A stretch of DNA of 64,000 nt, taken from contig CM000155.2 in assembly GCA_000004695.1 (NCBI GenBank), positions 1,536,001 to 1,600,000 on the forward strand, in the 5' to 3' direction. Shown here in pieces: positions 171 through 61,448 of this stretch. The notes beneath the pieces were generated by a model. That model worked only from the letters and a program-made list of their open reading frames with translations, did no database searches and was not told the DNA's origin. The translations under genes and the position numbers were made by a program. The first letter of the stretch is position 1. Each line of letters begins with the position of its first letter. Source of the DNA: Dictyostelium discoideum. Lineage: Eukaryota.

Positions 171-3145
171 TTAATAATATTGGCAGTTCCTATAAGATTT
201 TATTGTATTGATAATTGAATCTAGTTGGATTACTAATGAATTTCTATTTATTAAATAATCATTTTCATTAAAATTTTTAATTTGATTCATTAAATGGGGA
301 AAATATTCATTATCACATGAGTCCTTAAAATACTGATTTAAGATTGTAAATGATGATTTGGTAATATCAGTTTTGCCAAATTGTAATGATGTTTTACAAA
401 ATTTTACTATTTGAAGTGTATGTAAATAATAATGATATTTGTCACTATAATTTTCTCCAATTACTTTTAAAATATTATTAATTGATGATAATTCTAAATT
501 AAGACAGCACCACCTTATGCTTGGTAGTACTGCACAATTCTTTTTATAAACTGAACATGAATATTCCCATTCCTTTAAAAATAAATCATTTCTTTTTAGT
601 GACATGAATAACTTTAAATTATTCAAATAATCAGATTCATTTTTGACATAGAAACTTTCTTTATCTTTATATGGACGACTTATCATTGAATCCAATAAAT
701 CATTAAATGGTGATTGTTTAATGGATTCTAATGTTATCGATTCAAGCAAATCTTTATTTCTATAATCAATCGATTCATAATATTCATACAATAATCTTGA
801 TCTTTTATAAATGAAAAATAGTTTTATTTCTTTTGTTTCAACATTAATTTCCAATTGATTTTCAATTAAAAATTGATAAATTTGCTCAATTAATTCATGA
901 TTTATATATTCTCTTTTATTCAAAAATGTATGTACTAATATTTGAAAATATAATTGCAAATTTGCTTGATGTGAGGTTGTTGTAACTGTTATTATTGTTG
1001 CTGTTGATGATGATGATGAACATTTTTGAAAATTTCTACTATTTCTATTGATTTGGTTATTTGTTTTAATTATTTCTTTTGATTTATTAAATTGGTTGAT
1101 GAATGATTTAATAAGAGATTCTGAAAAATTTGGCTTGCTAAAATCAAAATCTTCACCTTTAATTATAAAATTCTCTATTATGAATCTTGAATAATTATTA
1201 TTAGATATTATATTTCCCTGTGTATCCTTAAATAAATTTTCAGCAGGTTGGGCATTTAAATTGGTGTTGATTTTAATTTTTGAAATATTAAATTTCGCTT
1301 GAGGATTTAATGTGCTTGTATTATTTCTATCACTATCATCTTCATAAAAACCATTTCTACATATATATTCTACTAAATCGTAATATTCTCGAGGAGTAAC
1401 CATTTTATTATCAAAAATAAAATTGAATAATCTATTATATTCTTGATAAATTGATTCATCTTCTTGATTTAATAATCTTTCATTTAAAGAATATGGTAAA
1501 CAACGTAAATAATAAAGTACAGATTTAAATTGAATACCTAATGAATGAAAATGTTTAATCTCTTGAATATTACATTGTATAATTGCTTTTAAAAATGGTA
1601 TTCGATAATAATATTGTAAATCTTCAGTGATTGAATATAACTCTATAAAGTGATTCGATAATTCAATAGAATCGAAATAGAAATAAATTTCAAATAACCT
1701 TAATTCTAATTTATTTAATGATGGTTCTCTCTGATACCATTGTACAACCCAATCCATTGTTTCAATATCTTTGATAATAGGGAGGGGATGATTATATCTA
1801 TCGTGAAAGATTATCATTAATGGATTCCATGTTTTTGGTAAATATTTTTTATATTTATTTGGTATATATTTGAATAGTTCTTCATATGTTAATTTATTAT
1901 CTATTTTTAGCATTATACCACCAATGGTTTCATGTAAATATTTTTCTATATCAACTTTAAAACTAATTCCTTCATATTTATCATCATCCTCTTCATCATC
2001 ATCTTCTTCTTCTTCTTCTTCTTCTTCTTCTTCATCTTCTTCTTCTTCTTCTTCTTCATCTTCTTCTTCTTCTTCTTCTTCTTCTTCTTCTTTTTCTTCT
2101 TCTTTTTCTTCTTTTTCTTTTTCTTCATCTTTTTCTTTTTCTTCCTTTTCTTTTTCTTCTTTATCATTTTGAAAACCATTGATATTATTTATTTTTGATA
2201 AAAGGGTTCTAAGGAATTCAACTGATCTATTTAAATTTTCATTTGCGGTTGAGTAAATATAGAAAGAATAACGTTTTTGAGGATCGAAAGTGAAATCCAT
2301 TTGTTTCAATATTGAAGGAATGTAATTTTTAAGACTACATTCAAATGCAGTCTTTTTAAAATCATCAATTGACATTAATTCATCAGGCAATACTTCATCA
2401 TGATATTTTGATAAATATAATTCTAATAGTTGATCTGATCGTGTTAAGATAATTAATTTTATAAGCATTTTTTGAATATGATCCTCTTCATTTTGTTCTA
2501 ATAATAATAATAATAATTCTGATTGCTGTTGTTCTTTTGGTTTTTGTTCTCCAAATAATTCTAAACATTTTAATAAAATTTCTAATCTATCTTGATTGTT
2601 AAAATTTTCACGTTCTTTAAATACCTTTTCAATATAATCTAATAGCTTATATATAGTTTTGTAATTTATAGTAACTGCTAAATATTCAAATCTAATGTCT
2701 TTATTTTGACGTTTTATAAATTCTAAATTTTTATTTGATTGATTTGGTTGTTCTTTTATTATATGATTTATCATAATACGGGTTAATGTAGTAAAATGTC
2801 TGCTGTTATCAAATAAATATGGGATAGAATCAAATGAAAATTCATTATCCATTAAACTCATTGTATATGATTCAAAGTTTGTTGTTGTTGTTGTTGTTGT
2901 TGTAGTTGTTGTTTTTGTTGTATTATTATTTTTATTATTAATATTATTAAGAGTTTCAAGTAATAAATTGATAATTTCATAACCACCATTTTTATATGCA
3001 ACTTTTATTATTTTTTTATCTTTCAAAAATTCAAAATTCCTTTTTTCAAGTACTAATTGCAATATCTCTTTATATAATTCAATGTTGATTGATCTTTGAC
3101 ATTTTAATCTATAATATTCTCTTGGTGAATCTATTATTTGTACTC

Positions 3146-3244
<99 letters not shown>

Positions 3245-3548
3245 CATTATTATTATTATTATTGTTATTATTATTATCAATTAAATATAGATTGAATAAT
3301 GACTTTATATTAAATTTACTAATATGAACATATTCATTATTTTTTAATTTATATTTTAGTAATTGAAATTGATTATTTTTAATCATCCATTTTAAATCAT
3401 AAATATGTTTAAATTTTGTCCGATTCTCTTTACCTAATGATATGGGTTCATAATTAATCCATTCATTATTTTCTATATGATCTAATATTTTGTAAAATAA
3501 ATATTTATTGTGAATTACTTTCCAAAATAGTACTTCATTAATATCCAT
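171..3548 (-). CDS. Large low-complexity hypothetical protein (about 1125 aa), single exon
   Basis: Uninterrupted minus-strand ORF (track 171..3548) with dictyostelid codon usage. Contains homopolymeric Asn (about 45 residues, (AAT)n near 3150-3290), a Thr run, and a Glu/Asp tract of about 60 residues encoded by (GAA/GAT)n near 1979-2160. No conserved domain recognised. The region upstream, 3549-4530, is intergenic. Confidence 0.55.
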
Positions 3549-3960
3549 ATTATTATTATTATAAAAAATAATTGTGGAAAAAAAAAAGAAAATAGGAAAA
3601 AAATTTGAAAAAAAAAAAAAAAAAAAAATCTTGGAGAATGAGGATAGTTTTTTTGGTTGAAAAAAAAAAAAAAAAAAAAATTTTTAATTCCAAATAAAAA
3701 AAAAAAAAAATAAAAAAATAATAATATTAATGTTCCCAATTTTTTTATTTATTTTTATTGTCATTTTGATTTTTTGAATTGTCCTCTTGAGGGTTAATTT
3801 TTTTTTTTTTTTGTAACAATTGAAACCACCATTAAAATTGTGGAGTTTATATAATAAGTTAATTGATTTATTTGGTTTTTGTGTTGAAATAATGATAATT
3901 TCCTTTTATTACGCTTTGAGCAAGCAAAAAAAAAAAATAAAAAGAAAAAAAAAAAAAAAA

Positions 3961-4058
3961 AAAAAAACAGATGACTACATTCATTTTATATATTTTTTAT
4001 ATCATTTTGTGTATTTTTGAGTGCTCTATTTATCTATACTAAATTCATATTAAAAATT
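3961..4058 (+). repeat. Copy 1 of a dispersed repeat element of about 95 bp (acagatgactacattcattttatatattttttatatcattttgtgtatttttgagtgctctatttatctatactaaattcatattaaaaattaa)
   Basis: About 96 percent identical to the direct copy at 4281..4378. Both copies are preceded by a poly(A) run of at least 20 nt. A third copy (inverted) and a fourth (direct, more diverged) lie at 26756..26835 and 26897..26995. Confidence 0.7.
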
Positions 4059-4150
4059 AAACAAAATAAATATACCCCATTGTCCATGCCAAAATTACTA
4101 CATTAATTTCAGCAGCCTCAGTAATTTTAGCATGCATAGAGCACCTATTT

Positions 4151-4238
4151 TAATATGGTAAAACTAGCGGGCTGAATTTAATATGATAAAATTGGTATCA
4201 AAAATTAATATGGTAAAACTAGCGGGCTGAAATTAATA
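4151..4238 (+). repeat. Two tandem copies of a 33-bp motif (taatatggtaaaactagcgggctgaa[a]ttaata) inside the core between the flanking repeats
   Basis: The copies lie at about 4151..4183 and 4205..4238, separated by 21 bp. The segment is unusually GC-rich (agcgggctg) for this genome. Confidence 0.6.
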
Positions 4239-4280
4239 CACCCAATCAAATCCAATTTCAAAAAAAAAAAAAAAAAAAAA

Positions 4281-4378
4281 ACAGAATGACTACATTCATT
4301 TTATATATTTTTTATATCATTTTGTGTTTTTGAGTGCTCTATTTATCTAAACTAAATTCATATTAAAAATTAATAATT
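4281..4378 (+). repeat. Copy 2 of the same dispersed repeat element (direct repeat of 3961..4058)
   Basis: Together with copy 1 it flanks a GC-richer core of about 200 bp (4063..4260). The pair sits in the divergent intergenic region between the 171..3548 gene and the Sec23/24-like gene. Confidence 0.7.
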
Positions 4379-4531
4379 TAAAAAAAAAAAAAAAAAAAAT
4401 CAAAAATAAAATTAAAATGAAAAAAAAATTTTTTGGGTGTCCCAATTGAATGTTTTTATTAATTTTATTTTTCATTTTTTTTTTTTTTTATTTTTTTTTT
4501 TTAATTTTCATTTTCTTTTTTTTTTTTTTAA

Positions 4532-4817
4532 ATGATGAATGATTTAAATTTATCAAAACTATCATTAGAAGAATCTAATGATGGTAAAAATTCCCCATCA
4601 CATCCAAGACAACGTATTCAATTCTATCAAGATGAATCAACAACCACATCATCATCACCTTCACAACAAAATCAACAACCACCACAAATGTATGAACAAC
4701 AATCACCAACACCACAAATGTATGAACAACAATCACTAACACCACAAATGTATGAAAAACAACCATTACCAGAAATGTATGAACAAAACCAGGTACCTTC
4801 AACAACACAATACTACC

Positions 4818-4915
<98 letters not shown>

Positions 4916-7900
4916 CCATATTATAGTAATAATGGTTTTGATATTCCAACACAAACAAACCCACAACATAGCGAAATTACTTCACTTGAATTTGGTATTG
5001 ATTTACCAAGTGATGGTGGTAATATGAGTGGAATAACAAATGATAGTATTCAAACAGGTAGTTGGTTTGATGATATATTAAATTATCAAAAACAATATTT
5101 TAATAGCAGTAATAATAGTAACAGCAATAAAGCAACAACAACAACGACAGTTCAACAAACTTCTAATGATGATATAGAAAATTATTTAAAAGATCACATT
5201 CAAAATAAAATAAAAGAAAATCAAGAACAAAAACAATACACCCATCCAATCAATATGGAATATGGTATAGATCAAAGTGTATTATCATCATCAACATTAA
5301 TATTCAATAGACATGATCAATTTAATAAATCAAATTTACCAAATGGTTTCTTATTATCACCTTTTTATCATCCAATTTCAACGCCAACCTCTTATGATTA
5401 TCATCCACCACAATGTGATAATTGTTATTCCTATGTAAATATATATTGTAAATTAAATAAACCATTGGAAGTAACAAATAATAGTAATAGTAATAGTAAT
5501 AATAATAATAAATCAAAAAAAGGAAAAACCTCTTCACTTTCATGGACTTGTTCAATTTGTTTGAATGAAAATTTAATTGATGATGGTAAAAGTGGTGTAA
5601 GAAATATATTAGATGTTGTTAAAGGTTTAGGCTGGTGGAGTACAAATCATTATAAATCTGTATTCTCTTCTGAAACTTTTGATATTAAAATTAAAAAAAG
5701 AAAATCTTATAAATCAAAATCAATTGCTAGTGTAATTGATAATGGTATTGATAATGATGATGATGATGATGATGATGATAATGAAAATAATATTAATTCT
5801 GCAAAAAATAATAGTATTAAAAATAATGATAATAATAATAGCACATATATTTTTATAATTGATGAAAACATTTCAACAACAGATTTAAAAGTAGGTATTT
5901 TAATTTAACAATTCTATTTATTTATTATGTATATTTACTAATTTTTTTTTTTTTTTTTGGTAAAAAATAAAAATAATAAAGGAAATTAATGAATCAATTA
6001 GATTATTAACAAAAGAATTACCAGATAAAAGTAATGTTGGTATAATTACATTTTCAAAGAATATATCAATATTTGAAATGAATTCAATTAATAATGATGA
6101 AAAGAGTAAAGAGAGTTTATTAGGTTTTAACTCTGCAAAATTAATTAGTGGTGCAAATTCCCTAAGTCAACAAAAACATTTACTTAAAAGAAGAAGAAAA
6201 CTTTATTTAGAAACAATTGAAGATAATAAAAAAATGATAAATGATAATGAACTTCAAGTTAAAGAAAGAACACCAAAATTAAATTCAATTTTAACAAGTT
6301 TATTAGAAACATTTGAAAATAATGGTGATCAAATAGTTTATGAAAGTAAACCAATTTCATTAGGTGTTGCAATTGAGAGTGCAATGTCATTAATTGGTAG
6401 TGGTGGTGGTGGTGATGATAATGATGATGATGTTGTAGAAAATAGTTCTAGATTCTTTGTATTTTTAAATGGTTCACCAGATTATGGTCCTGGTTCAATA
6501 CCAAAGATGCAAAGTGGTTTATTTGTAAATGCAAGTAGTATTGGTGGTGGTTCAAAAAATAATAATGAAAGTGGTAATGGATTTAATTTAACTACTGAAG
6601 AACATGCTCAATTGAATAATGCATATCAATATTATGAACATTTAGGTGAAAAAGCATATAGTTTCGGCATTGCAATTGATATTGCATTGATTGGTTATAA
6701 TAATTTCGAGAGTAAAGTTATCTCTAAACTTTGTAAACCATCAGGATTTATGACATCATCTTTAGAGGCATCACATGGTAGAAATGGTCAATCGGTAAAG
6801 GGTGAACGTGCAAACATATTGTTCTCAAATATGAATAATGCAATCATAAAGAATAGTGGTATCTTTGGTCAATTGGATATACATTGTCATGACTCGGTGA
6901 GTTTAACTCATTTAATTGGTCCAACAATTAATAATTCAGATATTAAAAACAATAGATTAATTCAATCATTCAATAGACATTGTGAAAATGATGAGGATCA
7001 ATTAATTTCAACCGATCAAGTTAATGATAGATATACAAGTTTCATCATATCAAATTTACAACAAGATATTTGTTTCTCTGTTTACTATAATCTTCAAGAG
7101 GATATACCATTGGATTATATTCATTTCCAATTTGTAATTCATTTAATTAAAGCTAATGGTGTTAAAATCTCAAGAGTAATTACAAAACGTTTAAAAATCA
7201 CTGGTAATTTCGATAGATTCTTATCTTCAATTGACCTTAAAGTTACCACAACTCTCTTGGCAAAGAAATTGGTTTTACAATCTCTTAAAGATCAATCTTC
7301 AAATATTCAATTTGAATTGGATAAACAAGTTAAAAAAATTTGTTTATCTTGTTCAAAAATTGAAAAAGGTTGGTTTAAAAAATCAATTATTATTCCTGAT
7401 ATAATTAAAAATGAATTTTTAAAATTGTAATGTATCAAAATAATAAATAATAATAATAAATGTATCAAAATAATAATAATAATAATAAATTATACTAATA
7501 ATAATAATAATACAATATTTTAAAATAGAATTTATAAAATTAGAAGAGGATTATTATTTGGATCAATTATTCAAAATAATGATGATTTAGTTATTCATCA
7601 AAATGATTTATTAAATTCAAATTTTATAGATTGTCAAAAACTTTTATTACCAAAATTATTCCAATTAAATAAGGCTAGTAATCAATTTAATAATATTCCA
7701 TTAGATATTTGTTCAATTAATCCAAATGTTATATTGATCTTAGATTGTTTTACAAATATTTATATAATGATTGGTAGTGAAATGAATGATGACACTGAAA
7801 AATTAAAACTCTTAAAAGACCACATTGAATATACCACTCACCAAAGAATACCATCGCCATGTGTTATGAAATTCAATGAAAATGGTCATGATATTAGATG

Positions 7901-8202: not shown

Positions 8203-14722
<6,520 letters not shown>

Positions 14723-26308: not shown

Positions 26309-26755
26309 TTTATCTTAAAAAACCTTTATTGATAATTTTACAATAATATATCTATTTATATATATATAAAATAAAATTTGTTAGAAAAAAAAAAAATGAA
26401 AAAAAAAAAAATGGGCGGAAAAAAAAAATAAAAAAAAAAAAAAAATAAAAAAATGAAAAACAAAAAATAAAAAAAAAATAAAAAAATTCACGCAAAATTA
26501 ATGAAGTTCTATTTGTTTTTTGATTTAAGAGTATTTTTTTTTTTTTTTTTATTTAACAGATTTTAAAAAAGGAATATATTAAGAAAAATGAATTGATTAA
26601 AATATTTGAGAAAATTTTTATAATTTAAAATATCTCCCCCTTTCTCACCACAATATTTGTTTATAAAAAAAAAATTGAAAAAAAAAAAAAATTTTATTTT
26701 TAATTTTTCTAATTTTTTTTTTTTTAATAATGATTTAATTTAATTTATTTTTAAA

Positions 26756-26835
26756 TATGGATTAAGTATAGATAAATAGAGAACTCAAAAATACACAAAA
26801 TGATATAAAAAATGAATGTATCCATTCTGTTTTTT
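26756..26835 (-). repeat. Copy 3 of the dispersed repeat, in inverted orientation, with a 12-bp internal deletion
   Basis: The reverse complement reads aaacagaatggatacattcatttt-ttatatcattttgtgtatttttgagttctctatttatctatacttaatccatat, about 85 percent identical to copy 2. Confidence 0.6.
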
Positions 26836-26852
26836 TGAATTTTTAAAATTTT

Positions 26853-26889
<37 letters not shown>

Positions 26890-26896
26890 AAAAACA

Positions 26897-26995
26897 AAAT
26901 CCATTGATTTTTTTTATATTTTGTATGATTTGTATTGTATATTTTTGGGTGCTCTATTTTTATATACTATATTCAAATTAAAAATTAATAAAATT
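26897..26995 (+). repeat. Copy 4 of the dispersed repeat (diverged, direct orientation), arranged head-to-head with copy 3 across a poly(A) spacer of about 45 nt
   Basis: The segment ...atttttgggtgctctatttttatatactatattcaaattaaaaattaa aligns to the 3' two-thirds of copy 1 at about 80 percent identity. Confidence 0.5.
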
Positions 26996-27102
26996 AAATC
27001 AATTTTTTTAATAAAAAAAAACATCAAAAAATAAAAATAAAAATAAAAATAAAAATAAAAAATCTGGAAAATCTCTTTTTTTTTTTTTGGAAATACTTTT
27101 AT

Positions 27103-28640
27103 TTATAATTTTCTTCTTTTATATCTTGTAATAATTTTTGAAATTACTGCATTCTTTTTCAAAAGAGCAGGATTAACAGATTCATCAACAGATTCTGGCA
27201 ATTGTCTGTGTTTTCCAGCCAACATTAACGCTATAAATACTAATTTTGAATAAGTTGATAAAGTTATACTAATTGATAATCCAACATTTCCAAAAGCTGA
27301 AATCGCTTCGAATAATATCTAAAATATTTTTTTTTAAAATTTTTTTTAATTATTTATTAGTAAAAATTGTTATTGTTGTTATTATTGTTGTTGTTGATTT
27401 ACTACTAATAATAATAATTTAATTTATAATTAATACTTACTTGAAATACAGTGATTACACCACTTTCTAAAAGTTGGCTTTCAAAAATAGCAATAAATAA
27501 AATACAAATATATGGAACGAAAATATCACGAATTAAAACTTCTTTCATAACTTCTCTACTTTGATTACTATATTTATTATTAACAGCAGACCTTCTCAAT
27601 GAAATAATGAATGGATATGATGAAACAAACATTAATCCAACAAATAATAATAAAACTGATTCACTTAATAAATTTAAATCAACTGAATTAAATCCGCATG
27701 TACGGGTACTCTAATAATAATAATAAATAATAATAAAAGTATTAATATATGTAAATAAATAATTAAAAAAAAAAAAAAAAAAAAAAAAAACTTACAATTG
27801 AAGAAAAGTAATAATTTAAAAGTATAGTACCATAATTCATATTTGTGAATGCTTTATCATTTACATCTAATAAAGCCATTAATGCAATTTGTGATACATT
27901 AAAAATACACCAAATTACAAATAATTGAACAGTTTCTTTATATGGGAAAAGATGAGTGAAAATTGAACGTGGATTTTCTAATAAATTTCTATATGGTTCT
28001 GGATCTTTTGTAAACTTTTAAAAATAAAATAAATTAATAATTAATATTGTATTGTATTGTATTGTATTGTAATAATTACTTTTGAAACTACTAATAAAAT
28101 AATTCTTAAAAAAACAGGAAATAAAGTATTTCCTAAGAAAATTAAAATTGATAATGTAATTAATAAAAAATATTTTTCATTAATTTGAATTAAACTATCA
28201 CTAAATAATGCTAAACCAGCATTATTAAATGCAGAGAATGTATGAAATAATGACCACCACCAACCATTTACTCCATTAGCTTTCATTATTGATCTAGCTG
28301 ATTCACTACCTGCTATATATGCACCAATACTTATAAATCCTAATATATAAATTGTTATAATATAACATGGTATAATTACTAATAATTTACCCAATGATCT
28401 ATATTCCATATTATCTTCATAACTATTTAAATTTAATGGTTTTGATAATTGTCTTTGCTGTTGTTGATGTTCTTGTTGCTCTTGTAATTCTTGTAATGAA
28501 TCAATACGATTAATATCAATATTAACTTCTTTTTGTATTGATTGTGAATCATTTGTATTATTATTATTATTTGTACTATTATTTGTACTCTTATTTAAAG
28601 TTGAGTTTGTTGTGGTAGTGGTAGTGGTGGTTGTTGAAGG

Positions 28641-57746: not shown

Positions 57747-58763
57747 ATGGAATTACAGATTTTATCAAATTACTATGATTTTGAAACTCTATCTGGTCGA
57801 AAATTGAATATTTCACAAGAGAGTGGAGAAACTGTTGGAAATGTAAAAAAAAGAATTGCTTCAATTTTTGGAAATGATGGAGAGATTGGAAGTGATGGTA
57901 GTTTTTATTTATTACATTATGGTAGAGAATTAAATGATGATGAAATTGTTAATCAATCTTTAATTGATAGTAGTGTGGATGGCGATGATAAATTAAGAGG
58001 AAATGGTAGTAAAAAGGATAATAATAATAATGGTAAACCAATTCAAATTCGTCGTAATAGATATAGTTGTTTTGCTGAACATATGATTAATGAGCATTTA
58101 GTAAAACCATGGTCAAAATGGATTGCTAGAATTTCTTGTATAATTTTTTCAGTGTTACTAATTGCATCATTGGCACAAATTTCATTTTACCTTCCACATG
58201 CTAAAAATGTACCAGTAACATTTCAAACATTGGGTGTATTTGTAATGTCATCTTTATTAGGATGGAAAATGGGATGCTCCAGTATTATCCTTTACTTATT
58301 ATGTGGTCTTGCAGGTGCTCCATTCTTTACAAATCAGAACCATGGTGTAACTTATATGTATGGAAGTACTAGTGGTTACTTGTATGGTTTCATCGTTGCC
58401 TCTTTTATTGTTGGATTTTTCGCCGAAATGGGTAGTGATAGAGCTTATATCTTTAATTGGAAATCCACTTTGTTTTCAATGATATTTGCAAATATTGCCA
58501 TTTACATTATTGGTATTCCTGTTTTAGCTATTAAAATTGGTTGGATAAAATCATTCAAATTAGGTTTACTTCCATTTTTAGTTGGTGATGCACTTAAAAT
58601 AATTATTGCAACAATTATAATTCCATCAATTTGGAAATTCATTGCATTTCTCTCAAATAAGCGTATAATTATTAAATCTCCAACAATTAAAGATATTTTA
58701 TCTTCTTCACAATTAAAAAATGATAAAACTTCAATTGAACTAAATAATATAAACTCACAATAA
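57747..58763 (+). CDS. BioY-family (biotin ECF-transporter S-component-like) membrane protein with an N-terminal ubiquitin-like segment, single exon, 338 aa
   Basis: The C-terminal 190 aa carries BioY signatures: VPVTFQTLGVFVMSSLLGWKMG, GLAGAPFF, GSTSGYLYGFIVASFIVG, YIIGIPVL and LPFLVGDALK. Six hydrophobic helices are evident. The N-terminal 75 aa (LQILSNYYDFETLSGRKLNISQESGETVGNVKKRIASIFG...) fits a beta-grasp, ubiquitin-like pattern. Confidence 0.75.
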   Translation: MELQILSNYYDFETLSGRKLNISQESGETVGNVKKRIASIFGNDGEIGSDGSFYLLHYGRELNDDEIVNQSLIDSSVDGDDKLRGNGSKKDNNNNGKPIQIRRNRYSCFAEHMINEHLVKPWSKWIARISCIIFSVLLIASLAQISFYLPHAKNVPVTFQTLGVFVMSSLLGWKMGCSSIILYLLCGLAGAPFFTNQNHGVTYMYGSTSGYLYGFIVASFIVGFFAEMGSDRAYIFNWKSTLFSMIFANIAIYIIGIPVLAIKIGWIKSFKLGLLPFLVGDALKIIIATIIIPSIWKFIAFLSNKRIIIKSPTIKDILSSSQLKNDKTSIELNNINSQ

Positions 58764-60418: not shown

Positions 60419-61448
60419 TTTTTTAAAATATCAATGGAAGTATTATTATTATAATTATATTAATATTTTTTAATTATTATTTCAAAAAATAATTTAATTT
60501 AAAAATAAAATTAATTAATTTAAATTTGTTATTTTTATATTTTTTTTAATTTTTTTTTTTTTAATTTTTTTTTTTTTAATTTTTAGAGTTGGTTTTTGAT
60601 TATTTTTTTTGTATTAAATTTAATATAATGGTGTTTTGAATAAATGGGAAAAAAAAATAGATTTAAAAAATCTTTAAAATGACAACAAAATGTTTATTTG
60701 GATAATAAAGGTTCTATAAAAAAACAAAGACAAAAATCAGATTAATTTAAAAATAAAAAAAAAATGAAATCATTATAATTTTTTTATTTTTTTTAATTTC
60801 CATTTTTTACAAAAAAGGATAACTTTACATTTATAATCATTTGTTGAAAAAAAAAGAATTCTTTTTTTAGAAATCGTCTTTTAAATTAATATTATTCAAC
60901 CACATTTATTCCCGTTTTGGAATTTTTTTTTTTATTTTTTTTTTTTATTTTTTTTTTATTTTTTTTTTATTTTTATTATTTTTTTTTTATTTTTTTTTTT
61001 TTTTTATATTTTTAAAGAAAAAACTTTTGGATAACCAATAAATTATTTTCATATTTTATTTTATTTTTTTTTAATTCAAATCTAACAAAATTATTTTATT
61101 TTTCATTTTTTTTTTTTTTTTTTTTTTTTAACAATGATTTCATTATATTTATTTTAATATTAATTTAGTATGGATAGTTGAGCATTAAAAATTTCACAAA
61201 ACGACATAAAATAAAAAAAAATAAAAAAAAAATGAAAAAAAACCTTTTATTTTTTGAATTTTTTTTTTTTTGAATTTTTTTTTTTATACAAAAATTAAGT
61301 TTGTTGTTGTAGAAAATGAAGAATGGAATATGGTAATTTAGTTTTTCCTTCTCATTCCTTAATCCAAAGCACAAATTATTATATTTTCTTATAAAGTTGA
61401 GATTTTAATTGGGCATAATAAAAAAAAAAAAGGAATAAATAAATAAAT

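Follow-up and report, generated by a model that had tools for sequence, protein, structure and literature searches.

Copies of the repeat in the window

What is the short non-coding repeat that brackets a GC-richer core in an intergenic region of Dictyostelium discoideum chromosome 6, and how did it come to be there? The window considered here is the whole stretch of 64,000 nucleotides of AX4 chromosome 6 in which this locus was noticed. The repeat is named R; locus 1 designates the arrangement A-core-B, C and D are a facing pair of copies, and F is a copy in a chromosome-2-like region (Table 1).

The preliminary description had pointed out the repeat locus from the sequence, and this observation was confirmed. 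The near-identical direct pair was real, copies A (3968-4062) and B (4282-4376) displaying 96.7% identity over 90 nt, or 95.7% over 117 nt once the preceding A run was counted in. The poly(A) runs of at least 20 nt announced ahead of both copies were recovered as A23 and A22, and the GC-richer core of about 200 bp was found to be 197 bp long, with a GC content of 31% against 18-19% for R and 9-17% for the flanks. The inverted, head-to-head pair at a poly(A) spacer was also recovered, the 5' ends of C and D facing an A31 tract. All four copies previously listed were present, while the total had to be corrected, a fifth and degenerate copy (E) having been overlooked. R thus amounted to five copies at three loci, in both orientations and all in intergenic DNA, the earlier ones having been placed in intergenic or promoter regions. 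Copy D lay ~100 bp past the last exon of a minus-strand, multi-exon transporter-like gene ending near 27103, and C and E were in sense orientation ~390 nt 3' of the stop codons of same-strand genes.

Identity to A in the conserved block was 92% for C and 86% for D. The match of A to B stopped at 4062, and that of A to the consensus tail (TTAAAYAAAATWAAAT) reached ~4075. Chance was excluded by nhmmer E-values of 5e-24 to 5e-15 for the five window copies and by a 30-nt block with two matches at no more than three mismatches, against 0.00 expected from 100 shuffles. R was the only complex dispersed repeat in the window, and R pairs were the top non-simple matches of an all-against-all search. The three window loci, together with the unlinked chromosome-2-like locus elsewhere, bore out the claim of a dispersed non-coding element as opposed to a local segmental duplication.

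Table 1. Positions of R copies, adjoining A tracts and core features (window coordinates unless another sequence is named)
Feature	Sequence	Position	Strand	Remarks
A-rich tract A12 T A5 G A23, immediately 5' of copy A	window	3926-3967	+	A23 = 3945-3967
R copy A	window	3968-4075	+	nhmmer E 5e-24
Hairpin, 96 nt	window	4060-4155	-	stem ~33 bp, loop 18 nt
Unique core, 197 bp	window	4063-4259	.	31% GC
28-bp minisatellite x 3.2 (TTAATATGGTAAAACTAGCGGGCTGAAA)	window	4150-4238	+	TRF, 69% matches
A22 tract separating core from copy B	window	4260-4281	+	
R copy B	window	4282-4376	+	nhmmer E 5e-21; shortened tail, A20 at 4380-4399 then TCAAAAATAAAAT
R copy C	window	26717-26844	-	nhmmer E 2e-19; tail AATAAA-N20-A13 then TTAGAAAAATTAAAAATAAAAT
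A31 spacer between facing 5' ends of C and D	window	26857-26887	+	
R copy D	window	26891-27008	+	nhmmer E 1e-16
R copy E	window	61129-61256	-	degenerate; AATAAA-N20-A24 tail
R copy F	D. cf. discoideum L003	6333-6434		
R copy F	D. discoideum isolate L008	15931-16039		
R copy F	D. discoideum isolate L009	15971-16075		

Anatomy and ends of R

The core unit of R was ~110-130 bp long, 81% A+T, and was organized as AAATTC-A(n)-CAGAATGACTACATTCATTTTATATATTTTTTATATCATTTTGTGTATTTTTGAGTGCTCTATTTATCTATACTAAATTCATATTAAAAATTAAATAAAATTAAATCATTATT-A(n); R started with CAGA(A)TGAC and ended with ...AAATTAA. In the following, Ecf and Fcf denote the D. cf. discoideum counterparts of E and F, and F8/F9 the F copy in isolates L008/L009. 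The 3' end displayed AATAAA, ~20 nt and then A13-A24 in B, C, D and E; the tail was degenerate and A-rich in F8/F9 and absent in A and Ecf. Past the A tract, T[CG]AAAAATAAAAT was encountered in four out of four copies; the same motif occurred 39 times window-wide, on both strands. An upstream AATTC-A(n) was common to B, C, E, Ecf and F.

The best candidate target site duplication was found at E (TCAAAAAATAAAA and TGAAAAATAAAAT), and a duplication-like T(C/G)AAAAA(T)AAAA flanked both sides, where it was inseparable from shared element sequence. Since the boundaries fade into homopolymer tracts, target site duplications merge here with shared element sequence or with target preference. No transposition hallmark is proven for R, and no autonomous partner of it is known.

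The MITE-like reading proposed earlier fared poorly: the consensus lacked a terminal inverted repeat, its match to its own reverse complement scoring 34 against 36 +/- 7.8 in 300 shuffles, 184 of which reached that score. A Helitron-like organization (5' TC, 3' CTRR after a small hairpin) was discarded as well, family homology running well past CTAA by eye.

No RNA-gene signature was detected either. ARAGORN found 0 tRNA genes in the 64-kb window and nothing tRNA-like; Rfam gave no relevant match for the whole window at gathering threshold and none at E<=10 in 3550-4540, which includes copies A and B. No tRNA-, 7SL- or 5S-derived head was thus found by Rfam in the window, and no GGTTCGANNCC-like string was visible in R. 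The fold check previously suggested for conserved secondary structure was run and returned 0 consensus pairs (RNAalifold). Individual copies of ~100-110 nt folded at -6 to -17 kcal/mol (ViennaRNA, 37 C), with z-scores of -1.5 to +0.9 on both strands, like shuffled sequences. DUSE-driven small ncRNA genes of Dictyostelium (Class I RNAs, snRNAs) carry a DUSE motif, [AT]CCCA[CT]AA, about 60 nt upstream; the window had five matches, where chance would give 9.4, and all of them were more than 100 nt away from the R copies.

Copies in related genomes and divergence

The F copy sat in a region syntenic with AX4 chromosome 2 (HSP70 / SpoU-methylase neighbourhood). Copy E had orthologs in D. cf. discoideum and in a second isolate of D. 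discoideum, while the orthologous E region displayed no R in D. citrinum (two assemblies) or D. firmibasis. In the DNA sampled, R was confined to D. discoideum and D. cf. discoideum. A further ~64 kb of unlinked sequence from the D. discoideum complex (L012-L014) held no R copy, so that the family may be of modest size. JGI metagenome contigs, scanned for exact patterns, yielded 0 matches for an R block and 0 for a core motif.

Divergence among copies was star-like. Every copy was nearest to A, with identities of 93% (A-Ecf), 92% (A-C), 86% (A-D), 84% (A-Fcf) and 82% (A-E), and pairs without A were lower (D-E 71%, E-Fcf 69%). Between E and Ecf, the R block was 83% and the entire intergenic region 78% identical, with better-kept patches outside R; the F upstream regions of D. 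cf. discoideum and D. discoideum were 68.6% identical overall, with a visibly scrambled R block. On these alignments, R is under no purifying selection, orthologs diverging like the surrounding intergenic DNA.

Locus 1 was compared with one other genome (L012), and the C/D locus with none. R and the core were both absent from the D. cf. discoideum intergenic region orthologous to locus 1 (L012 1653-4574), and A and B differed by ~3% as compared with 22-31% intergenic divergence between D. discoideum and D. cf. discoideum. Locus 1 is restricted to its lineage, and it probably represents the youngest R event. The surroundings of locus 1 and E were rearranged rather than simply element-free and offered no clean pair of filled and empty sites: a 65-bp inversion and a 170-bp indel lay beside E, and locus 1 was wholly restructured between genomes. 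The gene family adjoining R also varied in copy number. The orthologous site of D. cf. discoideum carries a 1.5-kb block with an ORF; that the core is a remnant of this block was considered, and rejected for want of similarity.

Origin of R

The earlier interpretation was partly supported. Dispersal, star-like divergence and the lack of constraint are consistent with a lineage-restricted, neutrally decaying, non-autonomous copy-and-paste repeat, possibly retroposon-like, and R could well be one, a reading to which we give somewhat less than an even chance. A near-consensus source would have been copied into intergenic DNA rich in A/T tracts, and the copies, once placed, would decay at the neutral rate; R would then be the relic of a small non-autonomous mobile element. 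The data show that the copies form one family, that R reached an unlinked locus, that its copies diverge in a star-like manner and lack constraint, and that locus 1 is confined to one lineage; mobility, retroposition and absence of function are what we infer. RNA-mediated, poly(A)-type retroposition would be the most favoured mode, given the succession of AATAAA, ~20 nt, an A tract and then an A-rich flank resembling the 5' flank; the enzymology is deduced from this arrangement. Locus 1, with its two 97%-identical direct copies around a unique 197-bp segment, would be the latest event. Against this reading stand the missing tail of A and Ecf, the want of a clean filled/empty site pair, and the known retroelements. 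The only non-LTR retrotransposons catalogued in D. discoideum, TRE5 and TRE3, insert beside tRNA genes (PMC3159450, PMC5633606). TRE5-A requires a 3' stem-loop, and the genome was reported to lack processed pseudogenes or retro-copies (PMC3159450).

R may alternatively be a reusable cis-acting module, acting as a core promoter on the opposite strand or as a 3'-end/terminator as written, which is unlikely but keeps an appreciable chance. In Dictyostelium, sense poly-T marks transcription starts, sense poly-A transcript ends and AATAAA cleavage sites; in the core promoter, poly-T ends ~2 bp before the TSS and TATAAA(A/T)(A/T) lies ~29 bp upstream (PMC3371697). Reversed, R gives TATAAAAAATATATAAAA followed by a T22-T42 tract, and forward it gives AATAAA and a poly-A tract; the TATA-like run, however, lies ~42-62 nt ahead of the T-tract end, off the canonical -29 or so. 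Reversed copy B displays T22 and then G at 4259, like predicted pri-miRNA TSSs, which are a G after up to 26 T-rich nt (PMC6161686). A 1125-aa gene with its ATG at 3548 runs away from A and B, which lie 413 and 730 bp ahead of that ATG; the chromosome-2-like copy takes the same divergent position, 276 bp ahead of the ATG of a paralog with only 41% protein identity, and outside R the two upstream regions share no homology. It is this position upstream of two paralogous genes in the same orientation that keeps a regulatory reading alive. C and E, behind same-strand genes, would suit a terminator; yet a promoter would need the opposite orientation in two of the five window copies (C, E), and a terminator in the other three (A, B, D). 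Orthologous copies, moreover, show no excess conservation, and in D. cf. discoideum the orthologous gene has no R.

No R accompanied the remaining members of the gene family that were sampled, which were, in L003, the second and third of the tandem paralogs, in L012 the two copies, and in both L013 and L014 fragments. With R expected in ~2 of 100 intergenic regions as background, one match in the four other loci of the family corresponded to P ~0.08 (an estimate) and was not significant. An association of R with the family of the 1125-aa gene was not retained; it is suggestive at two loci, and no relics of the family were found near C/D or E. Of the cis-regulatory or terminator module suggested earlier, what stands is the shared orientation upstream of two paralogs; conservation beyond the flanks and a consistent position and orientation relative to genes do not.

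R could also have spread independently of any transposition machinery, if the A tracts on either side provided the microhomology by which ectopic gene conversion, or template switching in break repair, occasionally pasted the segment into other A tracts, including nearby ones in tandem (A/B) or inverted (C/D). Same-strand A tracts bracket nearly every copy and homology fades inside them; terminal inverted repeats, clear target site duplications and a coding partner are all lacking; local pairs, a direct and an inverted one, make up two of the three loci in the window, as is typical of template switching; and the neighbourhoods are structurally unstable, as seen beside E, at locus 1 and in the copy number of the gene family. 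A star-like relation over at least four loci on two chromosomes is nevertheless better explained by repeated copying of a master than by rare pairwise repair. A tracts are also everywhere in the genome (PMC3371697), yet R is the sole complex dispersed repeat in the window. Such spreading is rather improbable.

More doubtful still is a miniature LTR-type (TRIM-like) element with R as its terminal direct repeat; A-core-B would be complete, and C, D, E and F would be solo copies that recombination between the two ends had left behind. A and B (97%) are far more alike than other pairs and enclose a unique internal domain of 197 bp; there are more solitary copies than complete elements; and R holds a TATA-like run and AATAAA, as LTRs do. 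The 8-nt TGGTATCA at 4192-4199, which we take to be the start of the plant initiator-tRNA-Met primer-binding sequence, was counted in its favour, but it lies 130 nt inside the core, and neither strand offers a TGG-initiated primer-binding site within 5 nt of a repeat end. The A22 that adjoins the 3' repeat is a pure polypurine tract; it is not specific, since A tracts also precede solitary copies. TG...CA termini are absent, no 4-6 bp target site duplication is identifiable, and at 95-130 bp R reaches at best the lower limit of the terminal repeats known.

Finally, that R copies are ~90-nt small ncRNA genes starting at ACAGATGACTAC, as had been proposed, is very improbable: their discrete size, a 5' sequence common to several copies and a T or A tract after it would fit, whereas the RNAalifold, z-score, Rfam, DUSE and ARAGORN results given above, and the neutral drift of orthologs, do not.

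Comparison with known elements

Among known systems, R is like SINE-like elements, e.g. the EhSINEs of Entamoeba histolytica (PMC1635306), in being short, non-coding and intergenic in both orientations. It further shares with SINE-like elements star-like divergence, neutral decay, AATAAA with an A tract, and duplicated-looking A-rich flanks. R differs from SINEs in lacking a tRNA-, 7SL- or 5S-derived head and A/B boxes, and no LINE partner is known for it. The A tract of R may also be internal to the unit, as a conserved 13-nt motif comes after it.

TRE5 and TRE3, non-LTR elements of the same genome, display modular non-coding ends, an oligo(A) 3' end and an AB...BC (repeat-internal-repeat) layout. 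They are found ~50 bp upstream or ~100 bp downstream of tRNA genes, in contrast to R, whose window has none. The last 54 nt of the TRE5-A C-module have a predicted fold of -20 kcal/mol (mfold at 22 C; PMC3159450), and a comparably stable 3' stem-loop is absent from the R copies. The C-module itself (134-137 bp, with oligo(dA) stretches) was rejected as the identity of R on context and fold, not on sequence, there being no tRNA gene and no stable stem-loop.

With TRIMs and solo LTRs, locus 1 shares near-identical short direct repeats around a 200-bp non-coding domain, with solitary repeats elsewhere; R lacks their TG...CA termini, adjacent primer-binding site and definable target site duplication. 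With MITEs and the DNA transposons Tdd, DDT and thug (PMC5633606), R has in common small size, AT-richness, lack of coding capacity and gene proximity, and it differs from MITEs and from the D. discoideum DNA transposons by the missing terminal inverted repeat. Thug-S, which has an intron and carries miRNA loci (PMC4894637), was considered for the latter and set aside, an intron-containing transposon being a different, larger element. Long homopolymer borders and suitably oriented TATA-like and AATAAA motifs recall the poly-T/poly-A promoter and terminator architecture of Dictyostelium (PMC3371697). This architecture, however, consists of compositional signals and not of a conserved 100-bp sequence between unrelated genes, and R fits its spacing and orientation inconsistently.

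Relevance for repeat annotation

Glockner et al. reportedly catalogued the complex repeats of D. discoideum in 2001. To our knowledge, all retroelements known from D. discoideum keep away from genes through targeting to tRNA genes or centromeres; R, unlike these, sits in ordinary promoters and 3' regions. The mobile-element catalogue to which a 2017 review refers dates from 2001 (PMC5633606), and at least one recent dictyostelid annotation detects transposable elements by tblastx against Repbase D. discoideum references (PMC11193728). Such a search would miss R, which is 110 bp long, 81% A+T and non-coding. Nothing about R amounts to a new kind of biology or points to a function. Genome-wide confirmation would give this compact model genome an additional small non-autonomous family, and R would serve to mark where intergenic DNA has recently turned over between D. 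discoideum and the cryptic lineage that is its sister.

The core of locus 1

No homolog of the core was found in the window, in L001-L011 or in L012 (L013 and L014 lay outside this search). The minus-strand RNA of 4060-4155 is predicted to fold into a hairpin of -28.1 kcal/mol (z -4.66), and none of 200 shuffles was as stable; the plus strand of the same region reached just -12.8 kcal/mol. This strand asymmetry was not retained as special evidence, the ten most stable 96-nt segments of the whole window all being likewise asymmetric. The predicted fold has the long imperfect hairpin of a miRNA precursor, and at -0.29 kcal/mol/nt it falls short of the accepted miRNA hairpins of D. discoideum, for which values of -0.53 to -0.60 are listed. 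Strings from the hairpin were absent from the text-searchable supplements of PMC6161686, PMC11014262 and PMC4894637.

A bolder combination would make R the first poly(A)-type SINE-like retroposon family of dictyostelids, mobilised independently of tRNA-gene targeting in a genome believed free of untargeted retro-copies, and at the same time locus 1 a newborn transcription unit. The R copies would there supply promoter- and terminator-like tracts around a lineage-specific minus-strand hairpin RNA (a proto-miRNA or ncRNA) starting at the G after T22, at 4259. We consider the chances of both parts holding together to be slim.

The second part of the core holds a minisatellite. The preliminary description had seen here a tandemly duplicated 33-bp motif; the duplication exists, and it consists of two 34-bp copies (4150-4183 and 4205-4238) that are 97% identical, lie inside the minisatellite and are separated by 21 bp.

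Copies of R in the window

The dispersed AT-rich repeat R may, from the sequence comparisons below, best be explained as a candidate uncatalogued, lineage-restricted, neutrally evolving non-autonomous repeat, and probably adds a new small repeat family to a genome that has been well studied. Locus 1, in which copies A and B flank a core, would best be explained as a recent composite. The window displayed a GC content of 22 %, and its ORF 57747-58763 corresponded by exact protein match to DDB_G0292424 of D. discoideum AX4, chromosome 6.

The observation made in the preliminary description was confirmed and extended. The four copies described there were real, but a fifth one, E, had been overlooked, and an unlinked locus, F, can be added. 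Near 4 kb, the two direct copies of ~95 bp were 96.7 % identical and each was preceded by the announced poly(A) run (A23 before A, A22 before B). The intervening core was indeed GC-richer (197 bp, 31 % GC, R itself having 18-19 % and the outer flanks 9-17 %). Its duplicated motif was present in two copies (97 % identical, 55 bp apart), but the unit was 34 bp long and not 33; TRF described the core repeats as 3.2 copies of a 28-bp unit. The inverted, head-to-head arrangement of C and D (locus 2) was also recovered. Direct reading of the sequence covered 3700-4700 and 26600-27150.

The matches were significant beyond doubt. A profile built from R copies recovered the five copies with E-values of 5e-24 to 5e-15, and a 30-nt block of R recurred in the window while shuffles yielded none. 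When the window was compared all against all, R pairs were the top dispersed matches, trinucleotide and homopolymer repeats aside.

Features of the window and of D. cf. discoideum considered here (window coordinates unless a stretch is named)
Feature	Position	Strand	Remarks
1125-aa ORF	171-3548	minus	one flank of locus 1
R copy A	3968-4062	plus	sequence reading and stringent BLASTN
Core hairpin	4060-4155	minus	96 nt, stem ~33 bp
Core	4063-4259		between A and B
R copy B	4282-4376	plus	sequence reading and stringent BLASTN
Sec24-like gene	start 4532		opposite flank of locus 1
R copies C and D	26717-27008	C minus, D plus	5' ends facing across A31 run
R copy E	61129-61256	minus	degenerate fifth copy, absent from the preliminary description
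Ecf	L002 13247-13355		D. cf. discoideum copy at the E locus
Fcf	L003 6333-6434		D. cf. discoideum copy at the F locus, E 2.5e-13

Distribution among related genomes

Regions of other genomes were reached via exact protein look-ups of neighbouring genes. The E region was compared among a D. discoideum isolate (L001), the sister lineage D. cf. discoideum (L002), D. citrinum (two assemblies, L004 and L005) and D. firmibasis (L006). L001 was 99.4 % identical to the window. E was present in L001 and L002 and undetectable in the D. citrinum and D. firmibasis stretches; DNA between the conserved anchors was non-homologous in D. citrinum, which therefore did not offer a clean empty site. Ecf was nearer to the family consensus than E of AX4 (93 % versus 82 % identity to A) and the two orthologs were 83 % identical. 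Intergenic DNA around E was 78 % identical between orthologs, the best-kept patches lying outside R. Beside E (61283-61420 versus L002 13380-13700), a segment of 65 bp was inverted between AX4 and D. cf. discoideum (90.8 % identity in reverse orientation), and the two also differed by an indel of ~170 bp. The gap included a 44-codon ORF in D. cf. discoideum, truncated in AX4, and an annotated 124-aa gene in D. citrinum.

An unlinked region, the HSP70/SpoU-methylase neighbourhood, was reached through a paralog of the 1125-aa gene; cluster annotations make it syntenic with AX4 chromosome 2. D. cf. discoideum and two D. discoideum isolates (L008, L009) carried R at this place; no copy was detected in L010 or L011. 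The presence of R at this unlinked locus refutes a purely local duplication, an outcome considered in the preliminary description. The family is dispersed.

In D. cf. discoideum, window 0.2-6.1 kb has its ortholog in stretch L012, which includes the 5' end of the Sec24-like gene and the 1125-aa gene ortholog, with a second copy of the latter in tandem after it. The 2.9-kb intergenic region of L012 (1653-4574) contained neither R nor core-like sequence; present instead was a GC-richer block of 1.5 kb bearing two ORFs (138 and 301 aa) for which no Pfam family was found. Core homologs were likewise absent from the rest of the window and from L001-L011. A and B differed by ~3 %, as against 22-31 % for intergenic DNA between the two lineages, which indicates that A-core-B is young or restricted to the D. 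discoideum lineage. Ty3-capsid-like retrotransposon fragments were found in L012 after the tandem second copy (9423-14476).

Outside the window, ~96 kb of non-redundant D. discoideum-complex DNA included one R locus that had not been chosen for R (F), and none was detected in L012-L014 (~64 kb). The window displayed three loci in 64 kb; naive extrapolation would put the genome-wide number anywhere between a few tens and several hundred.

Divergence, ends and mode of copying

Identity to A amounted to 92 % for C, 86 % for D, 84 % for Fcf and 82 % for E, and identity among these copies was lower (C-D 80 %, D-E 71 %, E-Fcf 69 %), so that each was nearer to A than to other old copies. A source close to the consensus may have given rise to the copies, each of which drifted on its own afterwards. 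This star-like divergence, together with the lack of constraint at the two orthologous loci (E and F), speaks for a selfish or neutral repeat and against a functional module.

On the 5' side, AATTC-A(n)-[C/T]AGAATG was common to the B, C, E, Ecf and F copies, which indicates that the upstream A tract is a hypervariable homopolymer internal to the unit rather than mere flanking DNA. On the 3' side, the family ran on as ...ATTAAAAATTAAATAAAATTAAATCATTATT. Copies B, C, D and E then had A13-A24, and F of D. discoideum had a degenerate run rich in A. Ecf lacked this 3' A tract, and in copy A the core took its place. AATAAA was located ~20 nt ahead of the tract, and T[C/G]AAAAATAAAAT past it in all four copies concerned (B, C, D, E), with just 39 occurrences on both strands of the window. 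Being of low complexity, this sequence may be either part of the R unit or an A-rich target duplicated at insertion. The best candidate pair was found at E (TCAAAAAATAAAA upstream, TGAAAAATAAAAT downstream).

Of all classes, the polyadenylated retro-copy comes closest to the ends of R, and for this reason retroposition seems the likeliest copying route. It conflicts with existing knowledge of the resident non-LTR elements and with the lack of processed pseudogenes reported for D. discoideum (PMC3159450, PMC5633606). Copying through the A tracts when breaks are repaired is a live alternative to retroposition, and so is descent from a TRIM-like element, with solo repeats elsewhere.

Gene context and other candidate classes

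Locus 1 occupied a 983-bp gap between two divergent genes. Locus 2 was set between two minus-strand genes, copy D lying ~100 bp past the last exon of the upstream one (ending near 27103); the ATG (26308) of the downstream one was ~410-440 bp away from copy C. Copy E followed a minus-strand gene, ~390 nt 3' of its stop codon, and lay ~0.9 kb 5' of the next gene.

The absence of constraint at E and F also weakens the cis-regulatory module suggested in the preliminary description. Its main support is positional: the F copy and the ATG of a paralog (41 % identical in protein) are divergent, with the copy 276 bp upstream, an arrangement shared by copy A (413 bp from ATG 3548), and the upstream regions of both paralogs are similar within R alone. 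R was nevertheless missing at the second and third tandem paralogs, at both L012 copies and at fragments in L013 and L014, and orthologous F copies were scrambled like their surroundings (68.6 % identity across the upstream region as a whole).

The 1125-aa ORF and its relatives form a multi-copy gene family without Pfam domain, recovered here from D. discoideum-complex assemblies only (L003, L008-L010, L013, L014) as tandem arrays and pseudogene-like fragments. Three, two and one annotated members, some partial, were displayed by D. discoideum isolates at the chromosome-2-like locus. Next to copy A, region 3797-3967 included a 112-bp complex segment (3813-3925) with T16 to its left and an A42-rich tract to its right. 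Under the poly-T/TSS and poly-A/TES rules (PMC3371697), this segment has the look of a very small transcription unit whichever strand is read, and it matched no Rfam family.

R did not pass the tests that define the remaining classes. R contained no open reading frame, an alignment of seven R sequences revealed no consensus RNA structure, and single copies folded no better than shuffles on either strand; neither tRNA genes nor Rfam families nor DUSE motifs were found near any copy. On these tests the small ncRNA genes proposed initially failed, whether structured or DUSE-driven, and the likewise proposed MITE failed for want of a terminal inverted repeat in the consensus. TREs need an adjacent tRNA gene and TRE5-A also a stable 3' stem-loop (PMC3159450), and R failed as a TRE on both grounds; it also failed the defining test of a SINE head of Pol III origin.

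Predicted hairpins

As minus-strand RNA, the core hairpin displayed -28.1 kcal/mol (z -4.66) versus -12.8 kcal/mol on the plus strand, an asymmetry that was not unusual. When every 96-nt segment of the window was scanned, it ranked among the ten most stable loci; most of the nine others lay within ORFs of at least 100 aa. Its -0.29 kcal/mol/nt fell short of the -0.53 to -0.60 of accepted D. discoideum miRNA hairpins, and its strings were absent from three published D. discoideum miRNA supplements. Ahead of it on the minus strand, reversed copy B provided a TATA-like run, T22 and then G at 4259. Its likeness to predicted pri-miRNA start sites, T-rich stretches ending in G (PMC6161686), and to the general poly-T/TSS rule of Dictyostelium (PMC3371697) is a lead, not a finding.

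If transcribed, the C/D pair would form a hairpin of ~100 bp, with predicted folds of -62.5 kcal/mol (z -8.2) on the plus and -53.1 kcal/mol (z -6.2) on the minus strand. Situated just past the 3' end of the gene ending near 27103, it could fall within the 3' UTR of that gene. Another unusually stable 96-nt fold was encountered at 7289-7384 on the plus strand (-28.4 kcal/mol at just 21 % GC; -15.8 on the opposite strand), where the second exon of the Sec24-like gene ends, near the inferred splice donor 7427.
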